In this document: in pieces, positions 38,461 to 64,000 of the stretch
How the letters are laid out: each line of letters opens with the position of its first letter
How positions within the stretch are numbered: the first letter of the stretch is position 1
DNA from: an uncultured Lachnospiraceae bacterium
GTDB lineage: Bacteria; Bacillota; Clostridia; Lachnospirales; Lachnospiraceae
DNA length: 64,000 nucleotides
Assembly: GCA_937920345.1 (NCBI GenBank)
Contig: CALGVA010000031.1
Coordinates: forward strand, 8,824 to 72,823
Reading direction: 5' to 3'
Program-made: the position numbers and the translations under genes
Notes under the pieces: generated by a model
Seen by the model: the letters and a program-made list of their open reading frames with translations, nothing else
Databases searched by the model: none
Told to the model about the DNA's origin: nothing

Positions 38461-38470
38461 AGTTCTTTTC

Positions 38471-44584: not shown

Positions 44585-44595
44585 ATATGCATCGA

Positions 44596-46662
44596 TTATC
44601 TGACTTCGATCCGGTAAACACGATATGTCCCGGCGTCTCCGATCACATCTGCCTGCTCTACAGTCACTCCGATATTATGCGCTGCATAATACGCCGTGAT
44701 CCAGTCCATTCCGCGCTCTGCCTGCTCAGCACTGGACATGATAAAATACACATGATCCTGCGTATACAGCGCATCGCCTGCGTTGTCGATCCCCGACCGC
44801 CGCAGTTTCTCACGGTACAACGGACTCTTACACATCCATCCGCCCATGATATCATAATTGGCATAGCCGTTGTCGGAACCGTCAAACAATCTGTGTGAAA
44901 ATGCCACCGTGGAATACACATCCTCGAAATAGAAATTTCCCTCATGCGCTCTGCAGTACGCATCGATCGCCTCTCTGTCCTGATTGACCAGCTCCCTGCG
45001 CATCTGATCCTCCCGCACCGCCGGGACACTGTCCATCAACGCGGCCATAAGAAGCACGCCCGCCAGAACTGCCAGACCGCGCGCCATTCCTTGTCCGGAC
45101 ATCGTATCGGCGCATCGTGCGTTTCTGCCGGCCGGTGCATGCCCCCGCACTGTACCGCCCATACTGCTGTCATCTGCCCGCAGTCTTAGTACCAGCATAC
45201 CCATAAGCAGCGCAAACTCCGCAAGATACAAGGAATGTGTGATCCGCTCGGGATCACGTCCTCTCATGAGAATGAACATCCACAGCGCGCTGCGCACAGC
45301 CGCCAGTAATACCAGCTGCCACACGAAAACATATCGTCTGCCTGTCCTCTCTCCGGCAGTCTTCACATATTTCCGGCTCCTGTTATGTTCTGCCGGTCTT
45401 ACATGTTTTCCGTCCTGTTTCGTCTTGTCCTCTGCTGCACGCAGCCGCCACGCCGTTAAAATGCCCGTCAGAAACACCGCCGCATACGCCCAGAGCACCA
45501 TGATATTGTAAGGTGCATCGCCGCTGTGCAAAGTCCGGTAGCGGTAGAAGCCGAGCTTTTCCCGAAAAATGCCCGGCCAGTCCTTCGAGGCGCCGATCGT
45601 ATGCACGGCATAATCCGCCAGTTCTGACAACAATGCCGTGTCGATCGCTTCATCCAGTCCAAAATTGTAATTGCGAAGCAGCGTCTGCTGATGCGGTGCT
45701 GCACCAAGTTCCGTAAGTGCGCCGCTGTAGCTGTCATCAGTGATGAGCTCCGGATAAAAGTCATAGACCGTCGTTCTGGCATCGAAGAAATCCCTGAAAT
45801 CTTTCCACTGCGCACTGCTGTATGCAGCCTTATCCGCCACGAAAGACAGAAACATTCCAATTAGTATGATCCCCAGCACGCCGCCGTATTTGTATAGATT
45901 TTCTTTCAGGAATATCTTCCGCTCCTCCACGAGACGATACAGGCCCGCCAGACAGATCAGGGGAAAAGTGAGCAGCAGCATCTCAGAGCGTAACTGGTAA
46001 GCCGTCACCACAAGGATAACGGAAGGAATATTTTTTACAACAAACCGGCGCGTATCCAACCCCGCCGGCGTGGTCAGAAATAAAAAGATCGCAGCCGCCG
46101 ACAGCATCGTGCAGGTAATCGTATACTGTATATTGATCAGGTGGGACAGGCACACACCCCATAAATACAGTGATAAGCCCAGAAGTACGGCACATTTGCG
46201 CAGCAGGTTGTCCCCGCGCTTTTGCCCCGTATACTCTGTTCTGCTTCCACACAGCGCACACAGCCTCATACCGGCCAGATAAAAACTGCCGAACTGACAC
46301 AGGCACAGAAACAGTCCGTACCACGGTATCGTCCTGCACATTCTATAGCACAGCGCAATCAGCGCGCCCAGCGGATACAGGGTCTGCATGTTATGCCCGT
46401 CAGGCGTTCCGCTGTATATGCCCGCCATGATATCACGCATCATCGTGTCATCATTTAAGTCATAATAGAAGTCAAAGCAGATCCCCATCAGAATCACATT
46501 GGCTGCTATGAAGCCCAGCGCAAGTATGCAGTTCTCATATTTTCTTATTCCCCTGTCCTGTTCCATGGACTGCATACCCTCTGAATTCCTTTCATGGACG
46601 CTGTTTTGCCTGGTCTTATATGCATCCGCTTTTGTCAAAAGCGTTGTCGCACATACCTTCAT
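44596..46662 (-). CDS. GT-C-like polytopic membrane protein
   Basis: An N-terminal membrane domain with YYDLNDDTMMRD after TM1 and a C-terminal soluble domain. The start may be further downstream (M33, GAGGG upstream). Confidence 0.45.
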   Translation of the reverse strand: MKVCATTLLTKADAYKTRQNSVHERNSEGMQSMEQDRGIRKYENCILALGFIAANVILMGICFDFYYDLNDDTMMRDIMAGIYSGTPDGHNMQTLYPLGALIALCYRMCRTIPWYGLFLCLCQFGSFYLAGMRLCALCGSRTEYTGQKRGDNLLRKCAVLLGLSLYLWGVCLSHLINIQYTITCTMLSAAAIFLFLTTPAGLDTRRFVVKNIPSVILVVTAYQLRSEMLLLTFPLICLAGLYRLVEERKIFLKENLYKYGGVLGIILIGMFLSFVADKAAYSSAQWKDFRDFFDARTTVYDFYPELITDDSYSGALTELGAAPHQQTLLRNYNFGLDEAIDTALLSELADYAVHTIGASKDWPGIFREKLGFYRYRTLHSGDAPYNIMVLWAYAAVFLTGILTAWRLRAAEDKTKQDGKHVRPAEHNRSRKYVKTAGERTGRRYVFVWQLVLLAAVRSALWMFILMRGRDPERITHSLYLAEFALLMGMLVLRLRADDSSMGGTVRGHAPAGRNARCADTMSGQGMARGLAVLAGVLLMAALMDSVPAVREDQMRRELVNQDREAIDAYCRAHEGNFYFEDVYSTVAFSHRLFDGSDNGYANYDIMGGWMCKSPLYREKLRRSGIDNAGDALYTQDHVYFIMSSAEQAERGMDWITAYYAAHNIGVTVEQADVIGDAGTYRVYRIEVR

Positions 46663-46685
46663 TCAGGCAGTACCTTTTTCGTCTC

Positions 46686-47813
46686 TTAACAGTAGAAATC
46701 CTTCACCTGCTCCGCAATGTACTCCGTCTCGTCCGCGGTCAGCGTATAGAACATAGGCAGGCGCAACAGTCTATCACTTTCCTTTGTCGTATACTTATCC
46801 TCCCCGTGGAATCTGCCGAACTTCATGCCTGCCGGCGCAGAGTGCAGCGGCACATAGTGGAATACCGCCAGAATATCCTTCTCCGCCAGGAAATGAATCA
46901 GTCTGGTCCGCTCCTCCATATCTTTCGTCTTAATATAAAACATATGTCCGTTATGTTCACAGTACTCCGGCACATAAGGCAGTTCGATCTTCCCCGCCTC
47001 CGCCAGCGGTGAAAGCAGTTCCTGATACTGCTTCCATCTGTTAAGTCTTGCCTGCGTAATCTCCTCCGCCTGTTCTAACTGCGCGTACAGATAAGCGGCA
47101 TTCATGTCGCTGGGCAGATAGGAAGACCCATAGTTCTGCCAGCGGTACTTATCTACCTGCCCGCGGTAATATTTGCTCCTGTCCGTTCCCTTTTCCCGAT
47201 AGATTTCCGCCGCCTCAATATACTGTTCATCCCGTATGAGCAGCGCACCGCCCTCACCCATACTGAAATTCTTCGTCTCGTGGAAGCTGAAGCAGCCAAA
47301 ATCCCCGAAGGTTCCAAGCGGCCTGCCCTTATAGGAAGCCATGATTCCCTGTGCCGCATCCTCGACCACCATCAGGTTATGCCGTCTCGCAATGTCCATG
47401 ATGGCGTCCATCTCGCAGCCCACACCTGCATAGTGTACCGGCACAATAGCCCTGGTATGCTCCGTAACAGCGTCCTCAATCAGACGCTCGTCCATATTCA
47501 TAGTTTCCGGTCTGATATCCACGAATACGGCCGTCGCACCGCGCAGCACAAATGCATCCGCCGTGGACACGAATGTATAGGACGGCATGATCACCTCGTC
47601 CCCCGGCTTGATTTCCGCCAGCAGTGCCGCCAGTTCCGTCGCATGGGTGCACGAAGTCGTAAGCAGGCACCTGGCTGTACCGGTCTGCCGCTCGATCCAC
47701 TCGCTGCACTTTCTTGTAAAGGGTCCGTCTCCACAGATCTTCTGGTTCTCGACGGCCTGCTTCATATACTCAAATTCTTTGCCCGTAAAAGGAGGCACGT
47801 TAAAGTTGATCAT
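46686..47813 (-). CDS. wecE: dTDP-4-amino-4,6-dideoxygalactose transaminase
   Basis: Near-collinear similarity to E. coli WecE as I recall it: FNVPPFTGKEFEYMKQAV..KICGDGPFTRKC, GDEVIMPSYTFVSTADAFVLRGA, VPVHYAGVGCEMD, FSFHETKNFSMGEGGALL, RGQVDKYRWQNYGSSY, HMFYIK, VFHYVPLH, TTKESDRLLRLP. Confidence 0.85.
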   Translation of the reverse strand: MINFNVPPFTGKEFEYMKQAVENQKICGDGPFTRKCSEWIERQTGTARCLLTTSCTHATELAALLAEIKPGDEVIMPSYTFVSTADAFVLRGATAVFVDIRPETMNMDERLIEDAVTEHTRAIVPVHYAGVGCEMDAIMDIARRHNLMVVEDAAQGIMASYKGRPLGTFGDFGCFSFHETKNFSMGEGGALLIRDEQYIEAAEIYREKGTDRSKYYRGQVDKYRWQNYGSSYLPSDMNAAYLYAQLEQAEEITQARLNRWKQYQELLSPLAEAGKIELPYVPEYCEHNGHMFYIKTKDMEERTRLIHFLAEKDILAVFHYVPLHSAPAGMKFGRFHGEDKYTTKESDRLLRLPMFYTLTADETEYIAEQVKDFYC

Positions 47814-47853
47814 GTCTGTAATCCTCTCTGTATGCTGCTTCGATGATTTCTAT

Positions 47854-47882
47854 AGTATACCACACTCTCACTCTGGTGTCAC
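47854..47882 (-). promoter_or_regulatory. candidate sigma-A promoter upstream of the wecE-like gene
   Basis: The minus strand reads GTGACA-17 nt-TATACT, preceded by TGG (extended -10). The -35 overlaps the stop codon of the upstream gene. GAGAGGA lies before the ATG at 47813. Confidence 0.4.
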
Positions 47883-49718
47883 ATATACTACATAGCGGGC
47901 GTTACTGAAACTTTCCTGATAGGAATGCGCCTGCATATATGCCCCCAGGATCTGCAGTTTCTCGTCCTGATCCAGCTTCTCCTGGTCTGCACCGAACCAG
48001 TTCATGCCGTCCGCATCCTCGTTCAGATATGCCGCCACGGCGGAGGATACGATTACCACGGGCGGTTCTTCCAGCCGTGTCATATCCCGCTCGTACTCCA
48101 CCATGCGGTAGGAGTCCAGATCCGGCCAGAACGTTGACAGCGCCGAGGGCATATCGAGCAGATACCCTAACCCCGGCACTTCCCCGTACAGGATCACTTC
48201 TCTGCCTGCAAGCTGTGCCTGCCGCACATATTCCGCCAGTTCCGTAAGATGCGCCGCATTGTCCCGACCGGTGTAGATGCCCGCCGCTTTGGCCGGCGCT
48301 GTCAGCAGTGTGTCGCGCGCTTCCCCGTTTCTGCCGTCCTGAAAAGAAAAGTACCGATGAAATCCCACACTTTGAATCAAAAGAAATATCACAAACAGGA
48401 AAAACGGCAGCCCTATTGCCTTTGCGCCCATTTCCTGCTCAACCGTATCTCTTTCACCCGCAAGCCGGTCATACGCGATCCACAGCACGAACGGCACTAC
48501 GATAAACAGATTGTTGATGATCGGATACAGCTGATTATTGCCGCCAAGCGGCGTAACAAAAATCTGTACCAGCACCAGCACCGCCAGGATCTTCTGTTCC
48601 TGTCTTATGCTTTTGCTGCACAGACAGTATACCGCCGTGTAAATTGCCACGAGTAAGAACATCACTGCCGGATAATAGACACTGCCAAAATCATAATAGC
48701 GGAAATGGAACACGCCTCTGCCCCAATAGAACCGCAGAAGTACTAATAGTACCACCGCATAAACTGCTTTGCACAATACCTCTGCGCCCTTGATCCCCGG
48801 AAAGAGCTTCCTTCGCAGCGTAAAAAGCACAAGGCCTCCCGCCATGCAGATGACTGCGAAAGCCATCCAAAACAAACCTGTCTCGTAGTCCCCGAACATG
48901 CCCGTCAGCATGGCGGTCGGCTTATAGTCCGTCGCCTTCTCCGTCATGGCAAACATAGTCTGCACCATGGCGGGATACGCGCCGGCGCCGTACCGGATAC
49001 AGATCGCCGCAAGCGGAATCCCGAACCCGGTCACATATCCGGCCATACACCACAGTGTATCGCGAACCGCCTGCCGGCATGTGCGTCCGCAGACCGCCGT
49101 GCCGTACCACAGCGCCACGATGCACGCCGCCTGCACCACATTCGGCATACGGACCGCCACATTGGCGCCCAGACAGATACCGGCCGCGATATAGTATCTC
49201 CGGTCTTCCTTAAGAATACCGCGGTAGAGAAGCAGTATCCCCGCCGCCATAAACAGATATGTCATGTAATTGTATAAAACCGTGGAGGGACACCAGCACA
49301 GCCCCAGCGCGAGAAACTCCCCCGCAAATGCAAGCGGCATCGGCATCCGGCCTGCAGATCGGTCTCTCCTGCGAAACGCCTCATATACCACAAGCGCCGT
49401 AAGTGACTGTATCAGCGCCGTATAGAAATACATTCCCGGCAGCGTGTCGCCGTAAGGCAGATGCATGAGCAGACTGCCAAGCGCATTCGCCAGAAACGTC
49501 GCCACCATCCACGTACCGTCCATGGACGCAAAATACTGGAAATTCGCCAGACTGTACGTCGTGTCCGCCACATCAATCCCCTGCCGGATCCTAAGTAGCG
49601 GATATAAAATCAGAATGACCGGAAACACGACGCGCTCTATGAGGTTTTGATATTTGTGATACACTACCGTCACACTTTTCATAATCTTGTACTTTCCTTC
49701 CGGTCTCCGCTTCGCCAT
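47868..49718 (-). CDS. GT-C-like polytopic membrane protein
   Basis: More than 12 helices and a C-terminal soluble domain. The track ORF (to 49949) overlaps the acyltransferase gene by 172 nt. The internal ATGs at 49718 or 49682 both have SD-like sequences and remove the overlap. Confidence 0.45.
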   Translation of the reverse strand: MAKRRPEGKYKIMKSVTVVYHKYQNLIERVVFPVILILYPLLRIRQGIDVADTTYSLANFQYFASMDGTWMVATFLANALGSLLMHLPYGDTLPGMYFYTALIQSLTALVVYEAFRRRDRSAGRMPMPLAFAGEFLALGLCWCPSTVLYNYMTYLFMAAGILLLYRGILKEDRRYYIAAGICLGANVAVRMPNVVQAACIVALWYGTAVCGRTCRQAVRDTLWCMAGYVTGFGIPLAAICIRYGAGAYPAMVQTMFAMTEKATDYKPTAMLTGMFGDYETGLFWMAFAVICMAGGLVLFTLRRKLFPGIKGAEVLCKAVYAVVLLVLLRFYWGRGVFHFRYYDFGSVYYPAVMFLLVAIYTAVYCLCSKSIRQEQKILAVLVLVQIFVTPLGGNNQLYPIINNLFIVVPFVLWIAYDRLAGERDTVEQEMGAKAIGLPFFLFVIFLLIQSVGFHRYFSFQDGRNGEARDTLLTAPAKAAGIYTGRDNAAHLTELAEYVRQAQLAGREVILYGEVPGLGYLLDMPSALSTFWPDLDSYRMVEYERDMTRLEEPPVVIVSSAVAAYLNEDADGMNWFGADQEKLDQDEKLQILGAYMQAHSYQESFSNARYVVYVTPE

Positions 49719-49777
49719 TCTCTCCTGATTGTTCGCCTTCGGCAAGGTTGCCGGGTGCAAAGTCCTGACCCGAACTG

Positions 49778-50848
49778 CTATCTTTTCTTCGCTTTGTGCA
49801 CAAACAGCTTCCGCACCCCGAGGAAAATCCGTGCCCTCACACAATCGACCATTGTACCGGCCGCATACACGATCAGCACACACCCGGCCATATGCGGAAT
49901 AAACGCCCAGCTTCCCTGTACAGCATCCACATGAAGCCACTGCATCCACTGATACCGCATCAGGATATGCTCATGCAGCAGATACACGCCGAATGTATAG
50001 GGTGCAAGCCGCCTGATCCGTTCTGCCGCCACGCCCTCCCACGGTTTCATATCCCGAAACAGCATAAACAGTCCCACCGACGCAAGCAGACACAGGACAT
50101 GGTTATACGTATCCGGCATATCCATATAATAGGCAAGCGGCGGCAGCACCTCCGCCAGACTGCCCGATACCGCAGTGAGCACAGCCATGCCAAGACACAT
50201 ACCTGCATATAGAAAAGCCGCATTTCTCTTCTTCTCGAGCCCCGGCAGCCCGTAGAGCCGTATATACGCCGCGATCAGAAAAAGAAACAAAAACCAGCCG
50301 TAGTCATAGCCGTATCGGTCCGTCGCCAGCTTCGCCGGCACGACAGACTTCCAGATACAGAAATAAAGGGCCAGCACGCCAATGATGATCCGCAGTGTCT
50401 TCCGGTCCACGGCTCTCACCCCCGCCGCCAGAAGCGGCGCAAACAGATACAGAACCAGATATGCCGTGGCAAACCAGTAATGCTCCGTCTCGACCGGCAG
50501 CACATAATTCAGCCAGTCATATACCGACAGTTCACCCGGAGATACCACGCCGGCACAGATCAGCACGACCGGAATCAGAAGCGAATAAAAAAGAATCTGC
50601 GCTGCCAGAGACACCACACGCCCCGGTTTCCAGACAGACTCCACCATAAAATACCCGCCAAGCAGCACATAGCAGTTCACCGCGACAATACAGAATGCCT
50701 CTATGAGATGCGCCGCATGGTTCACCGCGGAATGATCCTGTGTATATGGCTGGATCAAGCCGCCCTTATTCAGATAGTGAAGGACAATGATCATCAGCAT
50801 CGCCACAATACGCAGCAGTTCAAAATTCGCCTGTCGTTTTCCCCGCAT
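49778..50848 (-). CDS. acyltransferase-3 family membrane O-acyltransferase (OafA/WecH-like)
   Basis: FELLRIVAMLMIIVLHYL N-terminal signature and about 10 TM helices. Confidence 0.8.
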   Translation of the reverse strand: MRGKRQANFELLRIVAMLMIIVLHYLNKGGLIQPYTQDHSAVNHAAHLIEAFCIVAVNCYVLLGGYFMVESVWKPGRVVSLAAQILFYSLLIPVVLICAGVVSPGELSVYDWLNYVLPVETEHYWFATAYLVLYLFAPLLAAGVRAVDRKTLRIIIGVLALYFCIWKSVVPAKLATDRYGYDYGWFLFLFLIAAYIRLYGLPGLEKKRNAAFLYAGMCLGMAVLTAVSGSLAEVLPPLAYYMDMPDTYNHVLCLLASVGLFMLFRDMKPWEGVAAERIRRLAPYTFGVYLLHEHILMRYQWMQWLHVDAVQGSWAFIPHMAGCVLIVYAAGTMVDCVRARIFLGVRKLFVHKAKKR

Positions 50849-53324: not shown

Positions 53325-53858
53325 ATGACCAGAGTAAGATTTTATGAGAATGCAGCTGATAAGCTGCTTAAATTCGCCGTGATTATATCCAGATATCAGA
53401 ATAAATATGTCTTCTGCAAGCACAGAGACCGGGATACCTGGGAGGTGCCCGGCGGTCACCGTGAGCCCGGAGAAGACATTACAGATACAGCCAGACGGGA
53501 ATTGTATGAGGAGACAGGCGCTCTGGAATACGACTTATCGCCCGTCTGCGTCTATTCCGTTACCGCGCCTGATAATTTCGACGGCGCCGAGACCTTCGGG
53601 ATGCTGTACTTCGCCGATATTAAGCGATTTGAAGCGGAATTACACAGTGAGATCGAGAAGATCACGCTGACGGAGTGTCTGCCGGAACGTCTGACTTATC
53701 CCGATATCCAGCCCGTCTTAATGAAAGAAGCGGCACGGCGCAGGCATTTATCGGATGTCCGCGCAATCAGATCATCTCATTCTGTCTGTGAACCTCCGGG
53801 GGTTCATATTTGTCCAGAAAGTCCTCTCCTAAGAAAAGCACTTCCTCCGCAAATTTGA
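53325..53858 (+). CDS. NUDIX hydrolase
   Basis: Nudix box GGHREPGEDITDTARRELYEETG. This is the only plus-strand gene in the locus. Its last 92 nt overlap the convergent gene. Confidence 0.8.
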   Translation: MTRVRFYENAADKLLKFAVIISRYQNKYVFCKHRDRDTWEVPGGHREPGEDITDTARRELYEETGALEYDLSPVCVYSVTAPDNFDGAETFGMLYFADIKRFEAELHSEIEKITLTECLPERLTYPDIQPVLMKEAARRRHLSDVRAIRSSHSVCEPPGVHICPESPLLRKALPPQI

Positions 53859-54876
53859 TCCCGTTTGGCACGGTCGCCACAGACACCACTCTTCTGAACT
53901 TAAGATCCGGTATAAAGTTCAGAATCTCCATCGGAAACATGGGATTCAGCACGATATACTCCGCGAACTCTTTCCGGTAATCCAGCACATCCCGGGGATG
54001 CGGTTTGATCAGAACCTGCCCTCTTCTACCGTCGATCACGCCGTACTCCTCGATCACGTCTGCAAACAGTCTCCTGCGGACATCGAGCGCACAGAGCGGC
54101 TCCGTCAGCACCAGCACCTTATCCGCCGCACCTTGCTTAAGCTGCGCAAGCAGTTCATCCATATTCTCGATAAACAGACGGATCAGAAGCTCCTTATCAC
54201 TTTCCGTCAGCCGGTCCACAAGCCCCGCGCGCGGTACTTCAATATATTTCTTACAAGGATAAGGCACGACACTTAAGTCGTTGATCTCCATATCCAGGCA
54301 GTATCTGCCGTAACCGTTCTGGATGAAAATCAGTCCCCGCGCCGCCATCCATGCCTTGAACCCGAAATGCCCCCGGTTGTCGTAACGGGCGGTATCATAA
54401 TACTGAATACAGTTCAAACCGTCTTCTAACGCGTGGTAATAAATTTTCTCATAGTTCAGATAATAACCGATCGGATCGGAATCACAGAATACATAGATAT
54501 CCCGATACTGCCTGAAGTCTACCGGTACGTAGGCTTTCTCCAGCCTGCCAAACATCTTCGTGTACTTGATACGCGCAAGCATGTTGAGCACCAGACTGCC
54601 TCTATCGGTGTGATATTTCTGAAGCTCCGGGAAGAAAACGTCCTCCTTCTCGTCAAACATCACGACCTCTTCAAACAGACCGCAGCCCTCCGCACGTTCC
54701 TGCAGATTCCCGAAATCGTTCGACATGGTGCTTAACACCAGCGTCGCCCGGCCTTGCCGCTCCTCCGGAAGCGCCAGTTCTTTCAGACAGGTGACATATA
54801 CATGATAGTACGTATGACATACATAAATTCTTTCTTTCATAGATGTTGTGGTCTCCTCTTTAGGCTGATCGTTCAC
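53767..54876 (-). CDS. sialyltransferase-like (nonulosonate transferase) candidate, possibly GT52-like
   Basis: The N-terminal IYVCHTYYHVYVTCLK recalls GT52 N-termini. It carries an E-D-G motif (HALEDGLN) followed by an H-P motif (LIKPHPRD), the two short motifs described for bacterial sialyltransferase families. There is a 4-nt overlap with the ATP-grasp gene. Confidence 0.4.
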   Translation of the reverse strand: MNDQPKEETTTSMKERIYVCHTYYHVYVTCLKELALPEERQGRATLVLSTMSNDFGNLQERAEGCGLFEEVVMFDEKEDVFFPELQKYHTDRGSLVLNMLARIKYTKMFGRLEKAYVPVDFRQYRDIYVFCDSDPIGYYLNYEKIYYHALEDGLNCIQYYDTARYDNRGHFGFKAWMAARGLIFIQNGYGRYCLDMEINDLSVVPYPCKKYIEVPRAGLVDRLTESDKELLIRLFIENMDELLAQLKQGAADKVLVLTEPLCALDVRRRLFADVIEEYGVIDGRRGQVLIKPHPRDVLDYRKEFAEYIVLNPMFPMEILNFIPDLKFRRVVSVATVPNGIKFAEEVLFLGEDFLDKYEPPEVHRQNEMI

Positions 54877-56087
54877 TCCACCTCAACCCGAACAAGCTCC
54901 ATCGCCCTTCTCCCGATCTCCATCGCCTCTTCCGCGTTCCTGCCGACAGTGATGATATGTCCGAGTCTGTCATTGCTGGATCTGGTGCCGTGCGCAATAT
55001 CTCCCTCTTTCTTATAAACCGTCACTTCCTCCACGCCTTCCATCTGCGACAGTACGGGATCGATCTCTATCCGCTTAATAACGCCTTCTTTACCCTGTAT
55101 AAAATGAATCGCGGAGCCTCTGTGCCGCGTACATTTAAGGTCAACTTCCCCGCCTGTGGCAAGGAGCACGGAAGCCCCCACCATATCCACGCCTGTGGAG
55201 AGTGGTACGAGACGCGAAGTAATATAATCACCGCCCAGCCTTGCCGCCAGTTCCACGATCTTCGGTCCTTCTTCCGTCACCTTGATCTCCGTGTGGGACG
55301 GACCGTTCTGCAGTCGTATGGCACCTATCGCCTGCAGCGTCACCTGTCTGATCCGTTCCTGCGTCTCCCCGTCCAGACAGCTCGGCTCGCTGTGCGCGAC
55401 CTCCACGAAATAAGGCGGCGGCGTAATATACTTATCCGTAATCGTCAGGATCGTCGTCTGTCCGTCTACCGTCATTGCCTCCACGCTCACTTCTGGACCG
55501 GTCATATATTCTTCCACCATAACGATGCCGTTTCTGGAATTTGATCTGCTGTATTCGTAAGTCTCCCGCAGTTCTTCTCCACTCCGTTGTCTGCTCTCAT
55601 CAAGCAGCACCACACCGCGGCTGCCCGCATTATCCGCAGGTTTAACGATGCAGACACCCCGCAGCGCTTCCACAGCCGCCCGAAACTCCCCAAAATCCTG
55701 CACCGCATAATAAGCCGGAATCGGGACATAATTCTCTTCCAGCCGCCTGCGCATATGGCTCTTGATCGTCGCACACAGCGAATCCTCGTAGGACAGATCA
55801 GGCTTCTTACCCAGCTTCTCATTGACATAGGCCGCCGTTCTCACCGGTCCGTCACTGGTGGACGTGATTACCACATCCGGCTGGTAGATCAGCGCCTGCC
55901 GGTATACTTCCTCCTGATCCAGCGTGCTGACCACCAGCTTTACGTCAGCCAGCGCAAATCCCACCGCATTCTCATTATAGTCCACGAGAATAATCTGATA
56001 CCCCAGTTCCTTCGCCTTGCGGATCGCCGGAACCTGCAGTTCGCTCGCGCCTAAGATCATCATTTTTTTCTGCTTCGTCGTTTCCAC
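54873..56087 (-). CDS. ATP-grasp ligase (L-amino-acid-ligase-like)
   Basis: MMILGASELQVPAIRKAKELGYQIILVD, CIVKPADNAGSRGVVLL, MVEEYMTGPEVSVEAM, IVELAARLGGDYI. The track start is GTG, and ATGs follow at 56063 and 56060. Confidence 0.7.
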   Translation of the reverse strand: METTKQKKMMILGASELQVPAIRKAKELGYQIILVDYNENAVGFALADVKLVVSTLDQEEVYRQALIYQPDVVITSTSDGPVRTAAYVNEKLGKKPDLSYEDSLCATIKSHMRRRLEENYVPIPAYYAVQDFGEFRAAVEALRGVCIVKPADNAGSRGVVLLDESRQRSGEELRETYEYSRSNSRNGIVMVEEYMTGPEVSVEAMTVDGQTTILTITDKYITPPPYFVEVAHSEPSCLDGETQERIRQVTLQAIGAIRLQNGPSHTEIKVTEEGPKIVELAARLGGDYITSRLVPLSTGVDMVGASVLLATGGEVDLKCTRHRGSAIHFIQGKEGVIKRIEIDPVLSQMEGVEEVTVYKKEGDIAHGTRSSNDRLGHIITVGRNAEEAMEIGRRAMELVRVEVE

Positions 56088-56198: not shown

Positions 56199-57251
56199 TT
56201 ACATAATGTGTTTCCAGTCCATCGGCGTTCCCTTCGCGATATCTGTCTTCGCCCTCTGCCCCAGCACCCTGTCATAATACATCGGGTGCATACCGAATGC
56301 GGGACGTATGGAACGCACATTCTCTTCTGTAAAAGTCTCCCCCGCCTTAATGTCCTGCACCGCGAACAGGGAGCGACAGTCTTCTCTGCTGCGCTTTTGT
56401 TTCTCCGTCAGTTCATAGGTCACTCTGCCGACAGCCTTCTCCGCAATGCGGATCTCGTCCACCATCTGCTTAAACTCCGCAGGCTCCATGGAAAAAGCCG
56501 CATCCGGTCCGCCGTCCGCACGGGCAAGCGTGAGATGCTTCTCCACCATTTTCGCTCCCAGGGCCACGCCCGCCACTGCGGCCGCACCTCCCATACTGTG
56601 ATCGGATAATCCCGTAATGCAGTCAAAAATCTGTGCCATATGCGGAATCACGCTGAGATTCATATCTTCATAAGGAGAAGGGTAGGTGGAAGTACATTTT
56701 AGCAGAATCACCTGTTCATTGCCTTCCTCCCTGCAAGCGTAAACCGCCCGTTCGATGTCTTCCAGATAAGCGACACCCGTAGCAATAATGACAGGCTTCC
56801 CGATCTTCGCGATCCTGCGGATCAGAGGAATGTCATTGATCTCAAAAGACGCCACTTTATATGCCGGCATATCCATTTCATGCATATAATCCACCGCAGT
56901 CGCATCGAATGGCGAAGAAAAGCAATCCATACCCAGTTCCCCGGCAAGCTTCTTCAATTTCGGCTGCCACTCCCACGGCGTATAGGCCTCCTCATAGAGT
57001 TTATGAAGCGTGGTGCCGTCCCAGATCGTCCCCTGTGTAATCTGAAAATACTCCTTATCGCAGTCGATCGTGATCGTATCCGCCGTGTAGGTCTGCAGCT
57101 TGACCGCGTCCGCTCCCGCCTCGGCCGCCGCGCGTATGATCGCCTCCGCACGGTTATAATCCTGCAGATGGTTTGCCGACACCTCCGCCACAATATAGGT
57201 TTTCTCGCCCGCACCGATATACCGGTTTCCGATCCTGATCTTTTTCTCCAT
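56199..57251 (-). CDS. nonulosonic acid synthase (NeuB/PseI/LegI family)
   Basis: YIVAEVSANHLQDYNRAEAIIRAAAEAGADAVKLQTY, LSDHSMG, and a C-terminal SAF domain (FAVQDIKAGETFTEENVRSIRP). Confidence 0.8.
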   Translation of the reverse strand: MEKKIRIGNRYIGAGEKTYIVAEVSANHLQDYNRAEAIIRAAAEAGADAVKLQTYTADTITIDCDKEYFQITQGTIWDGTTLHKLYEEAYTPWEWQPKLKKLAGELGMDCFSSPFDATAVDYMHEMDMPAYKVASFEINDIPLIRRIAKIGKPVIIATGVAYLEDIERAVYACREEGNEQVILLKCTSTYPSPYEDMNLSVIPHMAQIFDCITGLSDHSMGGAAAVAGVALGAKMVEKHLTLARADGGPDAAFSMEPAEFKQMVDEIRIAEKAVGRVTYELTEKQKRSREDCRSLFAVQDIKAGETFTEENVRSIRPAFGMHPMYYDRVLGQRAKTDIAKGTPMDWKHIM

Positions 57252-57253: not shown

Positions 57254-57988
57254 TTATACATTCCCTCTTTCCCTACAACTTCCATACTGCTGCCGGCCCG
57301 CTTCCTCTGCCATCATCCGGTACTTCATCTCGGCTAACTTCCAGTCTGTCAGATTGTCGATATCCTGCACCTCTGTCTCCGGCACGATGATCGGCACATA
57401 ACCGTCCGGCAGATCACCGCGGCACGCCATATAGCGCTTCGTATGATAGAAATAGAACTGCCCGCAGTCATGATACATTGTCTCCAGATCCTGCGAGCGC
57501 TTCGCCGCATTTTCCGGATAACAGTATTCCAGTCTGCCGCTCCGTACCGCCATCCCCCGCTGGGGCGGAAAAGAAAAAGGCACCACCGGCATAACACCCG
57601 ACGCATCTGCCTGCACCAGAATACGAAATGCCTCCTGCAGTTTACCCGCCGTGACAAACGGCGCCGTCGGATAGATACATGCCATGTAATCAAACGTCCT
57701 GCCGCGCTTCCCGTACTCCGTCAGGACTTCCATCAGAACATCGTCCGTCGTCGCGAAGTCGTTCGCCGTCGCGCTGCTTCGCATAAACGGCACGTTCGCA
57801 CCTGCGCTTCTTGCGATCTGCGCAATCTCCTCATCGTCGGTAGACACCATAACTTCCTCGAACAGCTCCGATGCAAGCGCCGCCTCGACCGGGTAGGCGA
57901 GAATGGGTTTCCCCAGAAAGTCCTTCTTATTCTTGCCGGGAATCCGTTTGCTGCCTCCCCTTGCCGTTATAATTGCTATTGCGCTCAT
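57254..57988 (-). CDS. CMP-nonulosonate cytidylyltransferase (PseF/NeuA family)
   Basis: SAIAIITARGGSKRIPGKNKKDFLGKPILAYPVEAALASELFEEVMVSTDDEEIAQIARSAGANVPFMR. GGAG lies before the ATG at 57988. Confidence 0.8.
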   Translation of the reverse strand: MSAIAIITARGGSKRIPGKNKKDFLGKPILAYPVEAALASELFEEVMVSTDDEEIAQIARSAGANVPFMRSSATANDFATTDDVLMEVLTEYGKRGRTFDYMACIYPTAPFVTAGKLQEAFRILVQADASGVMPVVPFSFPPQRGMAVRSGRLEYCYPENAAKRSQDLETMYHDCGQFYFYHTKRYMACRGDLPDGYVPIIVPETEVQDIDNLTDWKLAEMKYRMMAEEAGRQQYGSCRERGNV

Positions 57989-58084
57989 AGTTTTCTCCAT
58001 TTCTGCGCTGCTTTTGTCTCAACTATGTTGAGACGTCGCATTAAACGAGTTTGTGGCAAGCAACGCGCAGACACAAATCTCGCG

Positions 58085-58150: not shown

Positions 58151-60457
58151 TCACAGCCGAAGTAATTCCTCCGCGATGCGCTGTGCGCCTTTTCCATCCG
58201 TCACCTCATGCAGCTTCCGCTTCATCTGATCTCTCATATCCTTATTTTCCAGGAGCAGCCGTAACTGTCCGCATATGTTCTCAAGACAGCCATCCCGGTC
58301 TGCACGGATATCTCCGGCATAGAGCATTCGACCGTCCTGCGCGAAGAATTCATGGTCGTACTGCTGGTTATCCGCGCTGACAAAGAAAACTGCGGGCGTC
58401 TGCGTCGCACTTAGCTCAAACAGCATCGTGCCCGCCGCGGACACCGCCGCCTGACATGTCCGCATAAGCTGCGCCATATGAGCAACCCGCTCATGTATAC
58501 AGATGTTCGGGTACTCCCCGGCCAGTTTCCGCAGTTCCTCCGCATTGCGGTTAAATCCTCCGACTACTGCATGAAAAGTCACTTCCTGCAGCATTTCGTC
58601 CCGCATGGCGGCGCGCAGGATACCCGCCAGCGCATTGTACATGTCGCCGCCGCCGGAACTTAACAAGACATGTGGCATTGCGCCATGATCCTGCTGTGCT
58701 TCACCGCACTTCACTGAATCTGTCACACCGGAATAACTGCCGCAGCGAGAGGCCGCATTGGCACTGCCGCCGCCGACATCCCCGAACTCTTCCCGAAGCG
58801 GCACATAGGATGTTCCGAGTAACAGTTTTGTCTGCCCTGCATACGCCTTTTCATACGGAAACCGCACATGATAGGCATTATAGTTAATTATCATATCCAC
58901 CGGATAAATTTCTTCAAAACAATCGTCGATATACGCCAGCCGGCACACATCCCGCAGACCCTCGAAATAATGCTTCGTCGCCTGGTAGGAATCCACCAGC
59001 AGTCTACGACACCCCGCCTGCTGCAGTTTCTCCCGCAGCAGTGGAATCTCCTGCTCCATTTCATCCCACTTCGTATGCAGACAGACGTATTGCATTCCGT
59101 TCTGTTCCAGCATCCCCGCGGCATATTCGTCCGCCGTGTAGAAGATCACGCGGCCGCACGCCGCAAGCAGTTTCTTTGCGATGGTAATGCACCGCATAAC
59201 ATGTCCCGTGGCAACCGTATCGTTGGCGTCCACACGGATTCCGGTCAGCTGACCCGCCTGCCTCTTCGTCCGTCTGTCTGCTGCTATACCCTTCCGGTTC
59301 TCTGCCTGCCCGCCGGCCGTTGTGCTCCTGCACTTCTCTTCCTCGTATTGCTCCAGCACCTCCAGTATGCGCCGCATCTCCGCTATTCCGTACCGCTGGT
59401 CCACAGGCAGCGCCAGTATATGCTCATAGATATATCGTTCATCCTGCGATAAAGCCCCGGCATTTTCCTCTCCCACCAGCCACAGCGTCGGTGCATAGAC
59501 GCCGCGGAGCGCCAGATATCTTTGCAGTTCGTCCCGGTCTTTGGCATAGACAGGGTAGTACAGCGGCGCGCCCTCTGTGAAATCGGCGAACACCGGCCGC
59601 ACCTGCATTCTTCCATCCAGATTTTCATGCAGATAAACGCAGTTTTCTTTCCTTCTGCTCTCGCATTCTTTTTCATCAATCCTTGCTAAAATGGCCGCCG
59701 ATTCCGCCGACAGACTGCTGATCCCGTCATATCTATCCAGCCACTCTTCCGTCTCACGATTCTTTCGGAGATATTCCGCCTTTATGGCACGCCGCTTCTC
59801 TTCGTCCATCCGCCCGTTCAGATACGCCCACTTACTCCGCAGCAACGCTCCTTTTTCCCGCACAAACTCTTCATTCGCAGTAAGACCATCCCCCGGCAGT
59901 TCCTCGTCCGATGCCACAAATCCCCCGTCCGGCACAGCATACCATTTACGCAGGCTTCCCACGCAGTAGTCAGCCTCTCCACCTGCGCTTTTCAGATAGT
60001 AGGACTGCGTCATATCCTCCATAATACATATGCCCTGCGCCCTCCATCTGCGGAAGAGGGGCCGCACGGATCTCCAGGTATCCACCCCGTAATAAGGGTG
60101 CACAAAAATCAATGCCGGCCTGATCTGTCCGATGCGCCTGTCCAGTTCCTCTATGTCCACTTCCAGATTTCTGTTAATATGATAAAAGTGCAGCTCCCAG
60201 CCTGCCCGCTCGAAGGGGAAGAAAACGCAGTCGCACATATATGCCGGAAGCAGACATCTCTTAGCCTCCTGCGGATGCCTGCTCTCATAACTTTTCAAGG
60301 CAAGCGCGATCGCCTCTCTGCCGGACGCCGTATACCTGATATGCGCTTTGTTATACTTCTCTGCTTCTCCCAGCCCGAACCGCTCTGCTGACTTCACCGG
60401 TCCTTCTTCGTAAAACGCGGGATTCAGTTCGTAGATGCTTCCGATTTCCATATCCAT
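58151..60457 (-). CDS. 768-aa fusion of an N-terminal fold-type-I PLP aminotransferase-like domain (DegT/PseC-like) and a C-terminal PseG-like UDP-sugar hydrolase
   Basis: N-terminal domain (about residues 1-372): ASGREAIALAL, LLPAYMCDCVFFP, LIFVHPYYGV, ICIMEDMTQSY, VGSLRKWYAVPDGGFV (candidate PLP lysine). Linker with KCRSTTAGGQAENRKGIAADRRTKRQAGQ (about 59246-59341). C-terminal domain: GIRVDANDTVATGHVMRCITIAKKL, as in PseG. Confidence 0.7.
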   Translation of the reverse strand: MDMEIGSIYELNPAFYEEGPVKSAERFGLGEAEKYNKAHIRYTASGREAIALALKSYESRHPQEAKRCLLPAYMCDCVFFPFERAGWELHFYHINRNLEVDIEELDRRIGQIRPALIFVHPYYGVDTWRSVRPLFRRWRAQGICIMEDMTQSYYLKSAGGEADYCVGSLRKWYAVPDGGFVASDEELPGDGLTANEEFVREKGALLRSKWAYLNGRMDEEKRRAIKAEYLRKNRETEEWLDRYDGISSLSAESAAILARIDEKECESRRKENCVYLHENLDGRMQVRPVFADFTEGAPLYYPVYAKDRDELQRYLALRGVYAPTLWLVGEENAGALSQDERYIYEHILALPVDQRYGIAEMRRILEVLEQYEEEKCRSTTAGGQAENRKGIAADRRTKRQAGQLTGIRVDANDTVATGHVMRCITIAKKLLAACGRVIFYTADEYAAGMLEQNGMQYVCLHTKWDEMEQEIPLLREKLQQAGCRRLLVDSYQATKHYFEGLRDVCRLAYIDDCFEEIYPVDMIINYNAYHVRFPYEKAYAGQTKLLLGTSYVPLREEFGDVGGGSANAASRCGSYSGVTDSVKCGEAQQDHGAMPHVLLSSGGGDMYNALAGILRAAMRDEMLQEVTFHAVVGGFNRNAEELRKLAGEYPNICIHERVAHMAQLMRTCQAAVSAAGTMLFELSATQTPAVFFVSADNQQYDHEFFAQDGRMLYAGDIRADRDGCLENICGQLRLLLENKDMRDQMKRKLHEVTDGKGAQRIAEELLRL

Positions 60458-60488: not shown

Positions 60489-61520
60489 TTAATCGTTTTT
60501 CCGCGCCTTTCTCCATCTGCGGTATGCCCACAGCAGCTTATAATACAACATAAAGAAAAGTGTGGAACGCTGCTGCATTCGAATCAATTTCTTCTCTTCC
60601 GCGTGGGTCCGCTCCTGATAATACGGATTCTGCATAAAGTCCGGAAACGTCCGCCGCATTTCCTGTCCCATCGCCCGCACGAAACCATACTTCGTACTGC
60701 CTACTCCCGCCATATATGTAAAGAGAGTATTTATATAAAATAAAAGCGTGAAACTGTACTCCAGTTCCGGCTTATATTCATCATAGTAACCGTGCCGGCG
60801 TGCTTCCTCCAGCATCAGACGGCCTGCTGCCATGCGGTCTTCACACCGTTTCGTCGAAATCGTGTGTACAGTGGAGGAATCATGCTGATAGTAGTAATAC
60901 ATCGGCTCCTCGATATACTCGAAGTGCTTCGCCAGCACCAGATAGGAATTACCGAGTGCATTGTCTTCATAGAATATATTTTCCGGAAACCAGAGCCCGT
61001 TTTCCAGAATCATGGACCGCCTGAATATCTTCACCACAAGGCTGCCGCCGTCCAGAATCAGGCTGCGGCGCTTCTCCGTATTAAGCGGGCCGCTCTGTTC
61101 CCGCTTATTATTCGAAACGATCTGTCCCACCTTCATAGAGTGTTCTTCTGTCAGGCAATAGTCACAGCCCGCCAGATCCGCACCCGTCTCTTCCGCCCGC
61201 GCAATCAGCTTCTGATACATATCCGGCGTGATCCAGTCATCACTGTCTATGAAGCCGACCCAGTCCCCCTGTGCCATTCTCAGTCCGATGTTCTTCGCCC
61301 CGCCCTGATGTTTGTTCACCTCAGAGTGTACCGCGCGTACTTTGTCCGGAAAACGGCGCTCGTACTCCTGCAGAATCGCATAAGACTGATCCGTGGAGCA
61401 GTCGTCCACGGCTATGATCTCATAGTCCTCCATCGCCTGATTGACAAGGGAGTCCATACAATATTCCAGTTTTTGGTCAGATGCCATGTTGTATACCGGC
61501 ACGATAATGCTGAGTTTCAT
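60489..61520 (-). CDS. GT2-family glycosyltransferase (first gene of the locus)
   Basis: LSIIVPVYNMASDQKLEYCMDSLVNQAM, IIAVDDCSTDQS, FIDSDDW. Confidence 0.85.
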   Translation of the reverse strand: MKLSIIVPVYNMASDQKLEYCMDSLVNQAMEDYEIIAVDDCSTDQSYAILQEYERRFPDKVRAVHSEVNKHQGGAKNIGLRMAQGDWVGFIDSDDWITPDMYQKLIARAEETGADLAGCDYCLTEEHSMKVGQIVSNNKREQSGPLNTEKRRSLILDGGSLVVKIFRRSMILENGLWFPENIFYEDNALGNSYLVLAKHFEYIEEPMYYYYQHDSSTVHTISTKRCEDRMAAGRLMLEEARRHGYYDEYKPELEYSFTLLFYINTLFTYMAGVGSTKYGFVRAMGQEMRRTFPDFMQNPYYQERTHAEEKKLIRMQQRSTLFFMLYYKLLWAYRRWRKARKND

Positions 61521-61633: not shown

Positions 61634-62605
61634 TCACATCTGCTCCTTCACCCCGCCGATCACGAATCCGTAAGATATATCCCTCTCCGCACTGATGTGG
61701 TACGGTGCCTCCACGTCCGCACCCCAGCTGTTGATACCGCCCACACCCCGCACCGCGCCAAGCACGGTCAGCACCGTCCTTCTCGGCGGCGGCAGTTCCT
61801 CCTGGTGCGTCGCGCTCTCCAGCTCCATAGCCGTATACGGAATACAGGCAAAAGCAATATCTCCGCCATCCTCCGCACGGAAACAGATCCCGCTCTTCCT
61901 CACTTCTTTGCAGGAATGATCGAGCACTGTACTGCGGTACACTTCCACCCACTTCGTCTGCATATGCATACCGCAGTCCTGGGGAACCAGATACGGCGTC
62001 ACCGGCAGCCCTTCAATCTCATATATGCCCGGTATACCGCCCGCCATTCTGTCAGGGTATGTCTCTCCGGAAAGTCCTTCATAGCGGTACCCGTCAGCAC
62101 AGGTAGGCATAATAAAACGCATACCGAATACCGGAAGTTCCGGCAGCCCTTCCCTGCCCGTGTAATGTACGCGGACATGAATGTCACCGCACGCATATAC
62201 CTCATAAGACACCGTGACCCGTGTCGCAGGCACGGTAACTGTCTCGTAGACAAATACAATCGTCGCCTTATCCGCCTCCACATCACCGCCGTATACATTA
62301 TTTGCCGGCGACATCGGTATTTCCACCGAAGCGTCATCGATCTTCGCCTCTACATCCACACATTTAATGAAACAGTCAGCGCCGATCCACATGCCGCTTC
62401 TAAGCGCAAATCCGCATCCTCTGTCATTATCCGTAATCGCCCGCCAGAAGGTGGGTTTCGGCGCCCTGTACAACCATTCCTTACCGTCGCGGACAAGAGA
62501 TTCCATACCGCCTCTTACCACGGAAAAAAGACAGGAAAATCCCTCTGCGTGCATCCCGATCATCGCATCCCCGACGACCACCCGCAATTTATTTGTGCAG
62601 TCCAT
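61634..62605 (-). CDS. lacM: beta-galactosidase small subunit
   Basis: MDCTNKLRVVVGDAMIGMHAEGFSCLFSVVRGGMESL parallels the LacM N-terminus (Bgal_small_N domain). The start overlaps the lacL stop by 17 nt. Confidence 0.8.
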   Translation of the reverse strand: MDCTNKLRVVVGDAMIGMHAEGFSCLFSVVRGGMESLVRDGKEWLYRAPKPTFWRAITDNDRGCGFALRSGMWIGADCFIKCVDVEAKIDDASVEIPMSPANNVYGGDVEADKATIVFVYETVTVPATRVTVSYEVYACGDIHVRVHYTGREGLPELPVFGMRFIMPTCADGYRYEGLSGETYPDRMAGGIPGIYEIEGLPVTPYLVPQDCGMHMQTKWVEVYRSTVLDHSCKEVRKSGICFRAEDGGDIAFACIPYTAMELESATHQEELPPPRRTVLTVLGAVRGVGGINSWGADVEAPYHISAERDISYGFVIGGVKEQM

Positions 62606-64000
62606 AATAGTATCTCACCTCCTGCATAGCCGGCTTCTCCGTCCTGTCCGCAAACACGATCCCGTTGCCGGAAAACTCATAGTCGCTCGGTCTGTCATCA
62701 AAGTCACCCCCGTAGCACAGTATATTTCGTCCTGTCAGCCGGTCTTTTGTATAAACCGCCTGATCAATATAATCCCATATGAACCCGCCCTGATACATCT
62801 CAAAGCGATCCAGCAGATCAATATAGGACTTCATCCCGCCGATGGAATTTCCCATATCATGCATATACTCGCACAGGATAAAAGGCTTCTTCGGATCATG
62901 TTCCAGATATTCCACGATTTCATCGGGCGTCGCATACATGCGGCTCTCCACCTCGGATACCGTATCTTCATAAGCACGGTCATAGACCACACCCTCATAG
63001 TGGACCAGCCTGCTGTCGTCCTTTTCCTTGAAAAAGGTCTGCATCGCCTCAATATCGTCCCCCACATAGGACTCATTTCCAAGCGACCAGAACAGGACGG
63101 ACGGATGGTTCTTAAATATTTCAAAATTGCTTCTCGCCCTGTCCACAACTGCCTCTCTCCACTCAGGCAGACTGCCCGGCACATTCCATGACGGCTCCGT
63201 AAACACCTTCTGCCAGGATCCATGGCTCTCGAGGTTCGTCTCCGACATCATATAGATACCGTTTCGGTCGCACAATGTATACCACGGAATCTGATCCGGA
63301 TAATGACAGGTTCTCACCGCATTAATATTGTTGCGCTTAAAGCACTCGATATCCCATTCCATATCCTGCATTGTAATACATCTGCCGCCCTGCGCGCTCC
63401 ACTCATGCCGGTTGACACCGTTAATAATCAGTCTCCGGCCGTTAAAGTAAATCACCTTATCACAAATCTCAATACGCCGAAAGCCAATCTCGCAGGGGAC
63501 CACCTCCATGACATCGCCGTCTTCGTCCCGCAGCGTAATCACAAGCCTGTACAGATACGGATCGTGGTTGCTCCACGGCATCACCTTCCCAAGCGTCTGC
63601 GGTTCCAGCGCCGTCTCCACTCCCGCCGGCAGCGTACCGCTTACACACACGCCGCCTTCTCTGTCGAACAGCGTATATTCCACTTTTGCCTGCTCGACCG
63701 GATAATCCGCTTCCCCGGAGAGCTTCATCTGCAGCGCCAGTGTTCCCGACTGCAGATCCGGCATTAGCACCGGCTTCACCCACAGATCTTCCACATGCAG
63801 CTTCGGTTTTGCATACAATGTGACATTTCTGTAGATACCGGAAAACCGGAAGAAGTCCTGATCTTCCAGATACACCGCCGTACTGTTCTTATACACTTCC
63901 ACCGCCAGTACATTACCCTGGTCTTTGATATAAGGGGTTAAGTCAAATTCTGAAGGGACAAAGCTGTCCTCCGCATACCCTATGAACTGCCCGTTCAGCC
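62589..64000 (-). CDS. lacL: GH2 beta-galactosidase large subunit, 5'-truncated by the window edge
   Basis: The frame stays open to base 64000 (LNGQFIGYAEDSFVPSEFDLTPYIKDQGNVLAVEVYK...). GH2 TIM-barrel blocks NAVRTCHYP, WSLGNES and ILCEYMHDMGNS are present. Confidence 0.85.
   Translation of the reverse strand, partial: LNGQFIGYAEDSFVPSEFDLTPYIKDQGNVLAVEVYKNSTAVYLEDQDFFRFSGIYRNVTLYAKPKLHVEDLWVKPVLMPDLQSGTLALQMKLSGEADYPVEQAKVEYTLFDREGGVCVSGTLPAGVETALEPQTLGKVMPWSNHDPYLYRLVITLRDEDGDVMEVVPCEIGFRRIEICDKVIYFNGRRLIINGVNRHEWSAQGGRCITMQDMEWDIECFKRNNINAVRTCHYPDQIPWYTLCDRNGIYMMSETNLESHGSWQKVFTEPSWNVPGSLPEWREAVVDRARSNFEIFKNHPSVLFWSLGNESYVGDDIEAMQTFFKEKDDSRLVHYEGVVYDRAYEDTVSEVESRMYATPDEIVEYLEHDPKKPFILCEYMHDMGNSIGGMKSYIDLLDRFEMYQGGFIWDYIDQAVYTKDRLTGRNILCYGGDFDDRPSDYEFSGNGIVFADRTEKPAMQEVRYYYGLHK

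Follow-up and report, generated by a model that had tools for sequence, protein, structure and literature searches.

Pseudaminic acids are sialic-acid mimics carried on bacterial surfaces and flagella, where their N-acyl groups set antigenicity as well as host and phage recognition. PseG, the UDP-sugar hydrolase of step 4 in their synthesis, acts on UDP-2,4-diacetamido-2,4,6-trideoxy-beta-L-altropyranose. The subject here is a gene of an uncultured mouse-gut Lachnospiraceae bacterium in which a PseG is joined to a second domain; it lies in a stretch of 64,000 nucleotides (nt) of contig CALGVA010000031.1, called the window below, and its coordinates and those of its neighbors are collected in Table 1. 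Judging from sequence and genomic context, the product of the gene may be a two-domain enzyme from a polysaccharide locus whose pseudaminic acid (Pse) pathway does without PseH, and its N-terminal domain (N-domain) would remodel the N-acyl group on a UDP-4-amino sugar before PseG acts. This is the reading preferred here, at a confidence a little short of even.

Several described systems form amides on or with sugars. In Neisseria, PglB2 is a phosphoglycosyltransferase fused to an ATP-grasp domain and yields a 4-glyceramido sugar. For the capsules of Campylobacter and Helicobacter, the aminotransferase Cj1437/HCAN_0200 makes a free amine, and the ATP-grasp amidoligase Cj1438 couples the amine to a uronic acid carboxylate. 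Glutamyl or peptidyl amide substituents occur on the nonulosonic or amino sugars of clostridial flagellins. The Pat/Pyl pathway of Bacillus cereus ATCC 14579, which leads to UDP-yelosamine, is described as a 4-aminotransferase followed by an ATP-grasp ligase, which takes the place of an acetyl-CoA-dependent transferase and uses a carboxylic acid for N-acylation of the UDP-4-amino sugar (Hwang et al., J Biol Chem 2014).

The fusion gene of the window is real, and the junction between its halves is no artefact. Translation of the plus strand of the same interval gives stops throughout. The ATG at 60457 is preceded, at a distance of 5 nt, by the ribosome-binding site AAGGAG, and a second in-frame ATG at 60451 corresponds to the MEIGS start seen in most homologues; promoter and terminator scans returned matches at chance level only. 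A preliminary description of this DNA had claimed a single polypeptide, and this is borne out, with every motif it quoted present in the 768-residue product in the expected order: ASGREAIALAL at residues 44-54, LIFVHPYYGV at 116-125, ICIMEDMTQSY at 143-153, SLRKWYAVPDGG at 168-179, GIRVDANDTVATGHVMRC at 406-423, and GGGSANAASRCGSYSG at 562-577. The basic, Ala/Gly/Thr-rich joint (EEKCRSTTAGGQAENRKGIAADRRTKRQAGQLT, 59246-59341) covers residues ~373-404. Contigs from four independent mouse-gut runs (three DNA and one metatranscriptome, the latter giving a contig of 7.7 kb) span the gene with substitutions only and zero indels. Public databases hold a 768-residue protein that is 99% identical, and more than 120 protein clusters, at identities down to 50%, align over 100% of the query. 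Among 82 related Lachnospiraceae species loci, the frame is continuous across the junction in 69, and the halves are adjacent separate genes in 13. Those 13 loci are what speaks for an assembly or sequencing artefact joining two genes, a proposal effectively refuted by the indel-free contigs together with the fused species loci and protein clusters.

The C-terminal half is assigned on its sequence as a bona fide PseG, as had been proposed. It matches the PseG model TIGR03590 over residues 407-703 with 166 bits against a cutoff of 153.55. Searched as a single sequence with phmmer against the PDB, this half found nothing, and a profile of the 82 homologues was required to match Campylobacter jejuni PseG (3hbm, E 5.8e-16). 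In that alignment the family motif tGHimrC lies on fGHikrD of 3hbm, so that the invariant Gly-His, which includes H419 (codon at 59201-59203), falls on G16-H17; His17 is the catalytic histidine of the C. jejuni enzyme. G418, H419 and R422 are invariant among the homologues. PseF and PseI follow directly downstream, both above their curated cutoffs, and relatives keep this arrangement.

The segment joining the halves has the marks of a flexible tether. In the AlphaFold2 (AF2) model, linker residues 382-399 have a predicted local distance difference test score (pLDDT) below 50, and most homologues are gapped here; where the halves are fused, the matches to the two domains are separated by a median of 6 residues (range -1 to 50). 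The full-length model shows two well-folded domains without a confident mutual orientation (predicted template modeling score, pTM, 0.57), and a fixed inter-domain interface was dropped as a candidate on this score and on the disorder of the linker. Substrate channelling had been suggested from the fusion, but obligatory channelling between the halves is unlikely, since the model gives no fixed geometry and the 13 loci with separate halves make the covalent link optional. The extra Gly/Ser-rich insertion reported for the PseG part does exist, but proves to be just a non-conserved, disordered loop between the PseG halves, gapped in most homologues.

The N-terminal half is confidently predicted, from its modeled structure and aligned residues, to be a pyridoxal 5'-phosphate (PLP)-binding domain of fold type I, remote from the DegT aminotransferases. 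Its 375 residues have no Pfam match at E<=1, and at the same threshold the whole protein is matched neither by DegT (PF01041), to which some homologues show weak or faint matches, nor by the PseC model TIGR03588 (cutoff 423.5 bits). The sequence matches that were found are weak: the EgtE lyase model (E 2.4e-5) and PDB entry 7n63, HCAN_0200, the best PDB sequence match at ~18% identity (E 3.8e-4 from the single sequence, 3e-8 from a profile). The AF2 model of the domain (pLDDT 92.9) has the seven-stranded large domain, the small C-terminal domain and the lysine after an Asp-bearing strand that characterize fold type I. Foldseek returned 851 matches at E<=0.001, the best 50 listed all being fold-type-I enzymes; the closest are the DegT-type WlaRG, HCAN_0200, QdtB and DesV (TM-score 0.62-0.69, around 0.65; identity 14-18%; probability 1.0). 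An hhalign comparison with canonical DegT (94% probability) pairs D148, S168 and K171 with D170, S194 and K199, placing K171 on the invariant DegT lysine. The fold-type-I, sugar-aminotransferase-like character given to this half in the preliminary description therefore stands, as does its PLP lysine, and the accompanying caveat that the domain might be no transaminase at all was apt. Annotation by hidden Markov models (HMMs), which had been recommended, succeeded for the PseG half and gave no PseC or DegT match for the other.

Conservation within the N-domain centers on the predicted active site. Asp148, Ser168 and Lys171 are invariant among the 82 fusion homologues, and in 128 stand-alone members K171, D148 and R47 are conserved at 100%, R170 at 99% and S168 at 98%. 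Across the family, R47, P71, G124, D148, K171, G178, R269, N272 and W326 are invariant, and R170, D353, R355 and Y356 are conserved at 99%. The great divergence of the domain from characterized enzymes might suggest a catalytically dead scaffold or dimerization module for PseG. This is very improbable, given that K171 and D148 at 100% and S168 at 98% are held in a family of ~30% pairwise identity, most members of which are stand-alone proteins.

The genomic setting was surveyed in 80 Lachnospiraceae species loci, with flanks of 10 kb on either side, drawn from at least 151 species-level genomes that encode an N-domain relative. The order GT2, N-domain, PseG, PseF, PseI, ATP-grasp, GT52 is near-universal. 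The ATP-grasp gene, whose product comes closest among solved structures to the L-amino acid ligases BL00235, RizA and BacD, is present in 66 of the 80 loci. A PseH-like GNAT was absent from the flanks of 78 loci even at E<=1e-3, and in the other two it is distant and on the opposite strand. In the cassette, the N-domain and the L-amino-acid-ligase (LAL)-like ATP-grasp enzyme would together replace PseH. Because the cassette is without PseH, the substrate of the fused PseG is probably not the 4-N-acetyl sugar. The GT52-like protein is the probable transferase for the pseudaminic acid derivative.

Some loci depart from this order. In L073, for example, PseF, PseI and the ATP-grasp gene seemed to be missing after the fusion gene, and PseF and PseI are lacking in others such as L049 and L066. 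L073, the one such locus examined, was rejected as a distinct cassette variant, because a mobile insertion (12703-16072 of that locus) follows the fusion gene directly, with TnpB-like (Cas12f1-like TNB domain) and AAA/PD-(D/E)XK genes; it pushes the three genes out of the 10-kb flank, and the same may hold for L049 and L066. In L008, the locus most similar to the window, ~1.2 kb of extra DNA (15542-16743) separates the ATP-grasp and GT52-like genes, which meet at ~54870 in the window.

Beyond these cassettes, a profile of the N-domain found 982 members at E<=1e-30 among 1.84 billion representative proteins (~1000 clusters at 50% identity). Most of the best 150 of the 982 are stand-alone proteins of 355-385 residues (~365). 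Database names for members are hypothetical protein, DegT-family or COG0399, and the fused forms are annotated simply as PseG. The family has been fused independently to PseG in both orders, the reverse order occurring in P0150, P0155 and P0164, and also to ATP-grasp (P0198), phosphoglycosyltransferase (P0173, P0206 and P0254), FemAB-like (P0238) and GNAT (P0177) domains; the ATP-grasp and phosphoglycosyltransferase domains precede the N-domain, and the FemAB-like and GNAT domains follow it. Of the metagenomic loci, 30 had flanks of 6 kb or more to either side; all 30 have a canonical DegT gene within 6 kb, and 27 have an ATP-grasp, FemAB-like or WbqC gene. Where at least 1.5 kb of flank was available, a ligase gene is directly adjacent in 33 of 48 loci. 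Three contexts recur: a flagellin island (Maf-PseB-PseI-(methyltransferase)-N-domain-PseF-WbqC-PseG-DegT), a capsule-type arrangement (PglF-DegT-phosphoglycosyltransferase-N-domain-ATP-grasp-FemAB-like), and DegT-ATP-grasp-N-domain-ATP-grasp-GNAT. The last was also seen in L131, a rumen/gut metagenome locus with a stand-alone member, where a nucleotidyltransferase::class-I aminotransferase fusion and octopine-dehydrogenase-like, FabD-like and FabG-like genes flank it (4807-7660 and 12785-14709); these flanking genes hint at elaborate acyl or opine-type substituents. No published description of the PseG fusion architecture or of the N-domain family was found in the literature. As a fusion it is nothing unusual: neighboring genes have been joined in Rosetta-stone manner, an architecture common in Lachnospiraceae and visible in public databases. 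What is new here is the recognition of the N-domain as a member of a large, uncharacterized, ligase-associated PLP family, and of a PseH-less variant of the Pse pathway.

The preliminary description called the N-domain PseC-like, so that steps 2 and 4 would be fused or the pathway reordered. On that view it would be a PseC-type aminotransferase acting on the UDP-4-keto sugar, as an isozyme or with another stereospecificity, and feeding PseG. The DegT-like fold, with its conserved Lys, Asp and Ser, agrees with such a role, as does a flagellar island (L004) with no canonical DegT gene in its 14.6 kb. The proposal is nevertheless distinctly unlikely, and on present sequence comparisons the N-domain is not the pathway's PseC. 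Neither TIGR03588 nor PF01041 matches it. Kineothrix alysoides and metagenome-assembled genomes (MAGs) encode separate PseB (540 bits against 408) and PseC (472 against 424, the score of the Kineothrix gene next to the cassette) ahead of the same cassette, and among the surveyed Lachnospiraceae loci PseB is found within 10 kb upstream in 63 of 80 and PseC in 67 of 80. With canonical enzymes encoded separately in relatives, steps 2 and 4 are not fused and no reordering of the canonical pathway is implied. The canonical DegT gene in all 30 well-flanked loci indicates that the N-domain family never stands in for DegT, and because PseH acts between PseC and PseG, a fusion of these two would not join consecutive steps.

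The PseB and PseC of this genome are expected, by synteny, ~3-5 kb beyond coordinate 64000. The gene order of the nearest relative, L008 (mouse-gut MAG MGBC108720), follows that of the window, and the nucleotide identity is 93-96%. In L008, PseB and PseC precede a LacL/LacM-type beta-galactosidase and lie 5.5-8 kb upstream of the GT2 gene; it is because of this collinearity that the pair should lie just past the end of the window. No PseB or PseC orthologue was found in the window by NCBIfam scans, which included 30 further open reading frames (ORFs) over 19-47 kb, or by tblastn of the whole window with Kineothrix queries, which recovered just a PglF-like dehydratase (36%) and WecE- and LegC-type aminotransferases (28%). 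A location elsewhere inside the window was accordingly ruled out, the L008 synteny also putting the pair outside.

Since the N-domain family is never the sole aminotransferase, nearly always has an amide-forming partner and has fused to PseG and phosphoglycosyltransferases, N-acyl tailoring of a UDP-4-amino-4,6-dideoxyhexosamine just before its use is the most economical role. In the mechanism we propose, PseB and PseC would make UDP-4-amino-4,6-dideoxy-beta-L-AltNAc, and the cassette's ATP-grasp ligase, in place of PseH, would join a carboxylic acid to the 4-amino group. With the sugar still bound to UDP, the PLP domain would then remodel this acyl group, most likely by transaminating a 2-oxo-acyl substituent (2-oxoglutaryl, for instance) to an aminoacyl one. 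The product would pass to the tethered or adjacent PseG and on to PseI, PseF and the GT52-like transferase, giving a Pse with a non-acetyl, amino-acid-type substituent on N7. In the B. cereus Pat/Pyl pathway the 2-oxo group is reportedly reduced in the end to 2-hydroxyglutarate; by analogy, if a transaminase used a tethered 2-oxo acid of this kind as its substrate, a glutamyl-type amide would result. A wider version is doubtful at present: in gut Lachnospiraceae, and beyond them in many Clostridia and rumen or gut anaerobes, the ATP-grasp enzyme may add a 2-oxo acid (2-oxoglutarate, for instance, which PseC itself releases) to the 4-amino group of a UDP-sugar, the N-domain may transaminate it to a gamma-glutamyl-type aminoacyl group, and further ligases, GNATs or methyltransferases may extend or cap the amine. 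Within the Pse cassette, such a module would stand in for PseH and leave N7-aminoacyl Pse on the cell-surface polysaccharide of this mouse-gut commensal.

Several points weigh against the acyl-remodeling reading. The sequence does not divide transamination from epimerization, elimination or decarboxylation. The ATP-grasp enzyme is nearest to L-amino-acid ligases; with a ligase of that kind, the amino acid would be attached already complete, and a transaminase would have no evident task. PseB and PseC are absent from the window itself, and the search for PseH covered 10 kb on either side, so that the gene may sit elsewhere in these genomes. HCAN_0200, the closest sequence match in the PDB, is furthermore a small-molecule (triose-phosphate) aminotransferase, a role that favors a different proposal.

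According to that proposal, the N-domain is a transaminase whose product, a small-molecule amine or an unusual amino acid, is released free and then coupled to the sugar by the ATP-grasp enzyme. Besides the HCAN_0200 match, the tight pairing of the N-domain with LAL-type ATP-grasp genes agrees with it, and the conserved R47, R170, R269 and R355 could bind a phosphate or carboxylate. Such a system would resemble Cj1437/HCAN_0200 with Cj1438, or BacF with BacD of bacilysin synthesis. It is rather unlikely here: the repeated fusions to PseG, in both orders, and to phosphoglycosyltransferases are to users of the finished UDP-sugar, for which a step at the UDP-sugar level fits better, and NDP-sugar aminotransferases are as close as HCAN_0200 in Foldseek.

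The N-domain could instead carry out another PLP reaction on a sugar-attached aminoacyl group, namely L-to-D epimerization, beta-elimination or decarboxylation. The genomic associations are the same as for acyl-group transamination, the sequence faintly recalls cysteine desulfurase and C-S lyase enzymes, and Tyr356, 99% conserved, could serve as a second base. FemAB-like partners would use L-aminoacyl-tRNA, and many known N-acyl groups of 4-amino sugars are D-amino acids. We nonetheless consider this unlikely, because all structural neighbors in Foldseek are transaminases or dehydratases, and racemase activity is not known for any enzyme of the DegT-like fold group.

If remodeling of the acyl group on the UDP-sugar is what the N-domain does, it would constitute an undescribed route for decorating a sialic-acid-like bacterial sugar. 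A whole clade of gut commensals carries a Pse pathway cassette without PseH, with an ATP-grasp ligase and an unstudied PLP enzyme instead. The reaction of the N-domain, once known, would explain the making of peptidyl- and aminoacyl-amido sugars, correct widespread under-annotation, and supply enzymes for chemoenzymatic synthesis of nonulosonic acid analogues.

Table 1. Coordinates in the window of the fusion gene, its domains and key codons, and the adjoining cassette genes.
Feature	Coordinates	Strand	Remarks
Whole fusion gene	58151..60457	minus	768 codons plus stop, one uninterrupted ORF
N-terminal domain	59333..60457	minus	Residues 1-375; predicted fold-type-I PLP domain, remote DegT relative
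Arg47 codon	60317-60319	minus	In place of Thr of DegT SGT
Asp148 codon	60014-60016	minus	EDxTQ motif
Gln151 codon	60005-60007	minus	EDxTQ motif
Lys171 codon	59945..59947	minus	Predicted Schiff-base Lys in S168-L-R170-K171-W; invariant, hhalign
Inter-domain linker	59246..59332	minus	Residues 376-404; basic, low-complexity, non-conserved, predicted disordered
PseG domain	58154..59245	minus	Residues 405-768; UDP-sugar hydrolase, two-Rossmann (GT-B) fold
Variable loop	58685..58774	minus	Residues 562-591, between PseG Rossmann halves; contains GGGSANAASRCGSYSG; pLDDT <50
GT2 glycosyltransferase	60489..61520	minus	Directly upstream; conserved first gene of cassette
PseF, CMP-pseudaminic acid synthetase	57254..58000	minus	TIGR03584, 275 bits against 205.7
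PseI, pseudaminic acid synthase	56199..57251	minus	TIGR03586, 490 bits against 340
ATP-grasp ligase, L-amino-acid-ligase type	54873..56087	minus	Pfam ATP-grasp_4 and LAL_C2; proposed N-domain partner
GT52-like (sialyltransferase-family) glycosyltransferase	53767..54876	minus	PF07922, 41.9 bits; conserved in cassette

Other genes of the window were identified over the ~19-64 kb examined, where the sole plus-strand gene is a NUDIX gene (YtkD-like, 53325-53858); its 3' end overlaps that of the GT52-like gene by ~90 nt, and it is not at that position in Kineothrix. The remainder are on the minus strand. Toward the window end (61634-63902), two ORFs with a 17-nt overlap cover the C-terminal (721-1004) and central (180-613) positions of the LacZ-type beta-galactosidase model; L008 has the same split, and the gene separates PseB-PseC from the other Pse cassette genes. 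This looks like a heterodimeric LacL/LacM enzyme and not a frameshifted pseudogene, and a pseudogene marking a rearrangement was rejected given the identical split in L008 and an ORF overlap as in LacL/LacM. The interval 42971-49949 encodes an ArnC/PgfS-like GT2 enzyme, a PseH-like GNAT below the family cutoff (TIGR03585, 71.7 bits against 93.1) and a WecE-type dTDP-4-amino-4,6-dideoxyhexose transaminase (630 bits), interleaved with two large proteins of 688 and 693 residues that have no Pfam or NCBIfam match. At 33677-38493 lie a PglF/CapD-like membrane dehydratase, a LegC/PglE-like DegT aminotransferase, a small phosphoglycosyltransferase and an ATP-grasp protein (PRK12767-type, 497 bits), a module that resembles the arrangement of the B. 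cereus Pat/Pyl operon and suggests that the initiating sugar of the polysaccharide is also N4-acylated by an ATP-grasp ligase. The genes at 19043-32559 (TviB-/TviC-like UDP-GlcNAc 6-dehydrogenase and 4-epimerase, an ArnA-N-like formyltransferase, an asparagine-synthase-type amidotransferase and several GT4 enzymes) suggest that the polymer contains amino-uronic acids in amidated or formylated form.

Set against described enzymes, the C-terminal 364 residues agree with PseG of C. jejuni (Cj1312, PDB 3hbm/3hbn, TIGR03590) in their score above the equivalog cutoff, the GH motif and the PseF/PseI neighbors, and differ in the added 375-residue N-terminal PLP domain and the 30-residue disordered loop between the PseG halves. 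The N-domain has the fold-type-I architecture and Asp/Ser/Lys PLP triad in common with the DegT/DnrJ/EryC1/StrS family (PF01041; WlaRG 5u20, QdtB 3frk, DesV 2oga), but falls below Pfam and NCBIfam thresholds at 14-18% identity, has SGR for SGT and SLRKW for SFxxxK, and conserves residues of its own (R269, N272, W326 and D353-x-R355-Y356).

At the level of systems, the pairing of a DegT-like PLP enzyme with an ATP-grasp amide former in a polysaccharide locus recalls Cj1437/HCAN_0200 and Cj1438; identity to the former is only ~18%, and the fusions described here point to a UDP-sugar-bound substrate, in contrast to the free amine made there. Neisseria PglB2 is alike in using ATP-grasp N4-acylation instead of N-acetylation and in the fusion of a tailoring enzyme to a consumer of the UDP-sugar, whereas its sugar is of the bacillosamine type, rather than Pse, and no second PLP enzyme takes part. 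The Pat/Pyl pathway of B. cereus, as described, is likewise similar in combining an aminotransferase with ATP-grasp N-acylation in place of an acetyl-CoA-dependent transferase; no second PLP enzyme is described for it, whereas in the family reported here such an enzyme goes strictly together with the ligase.

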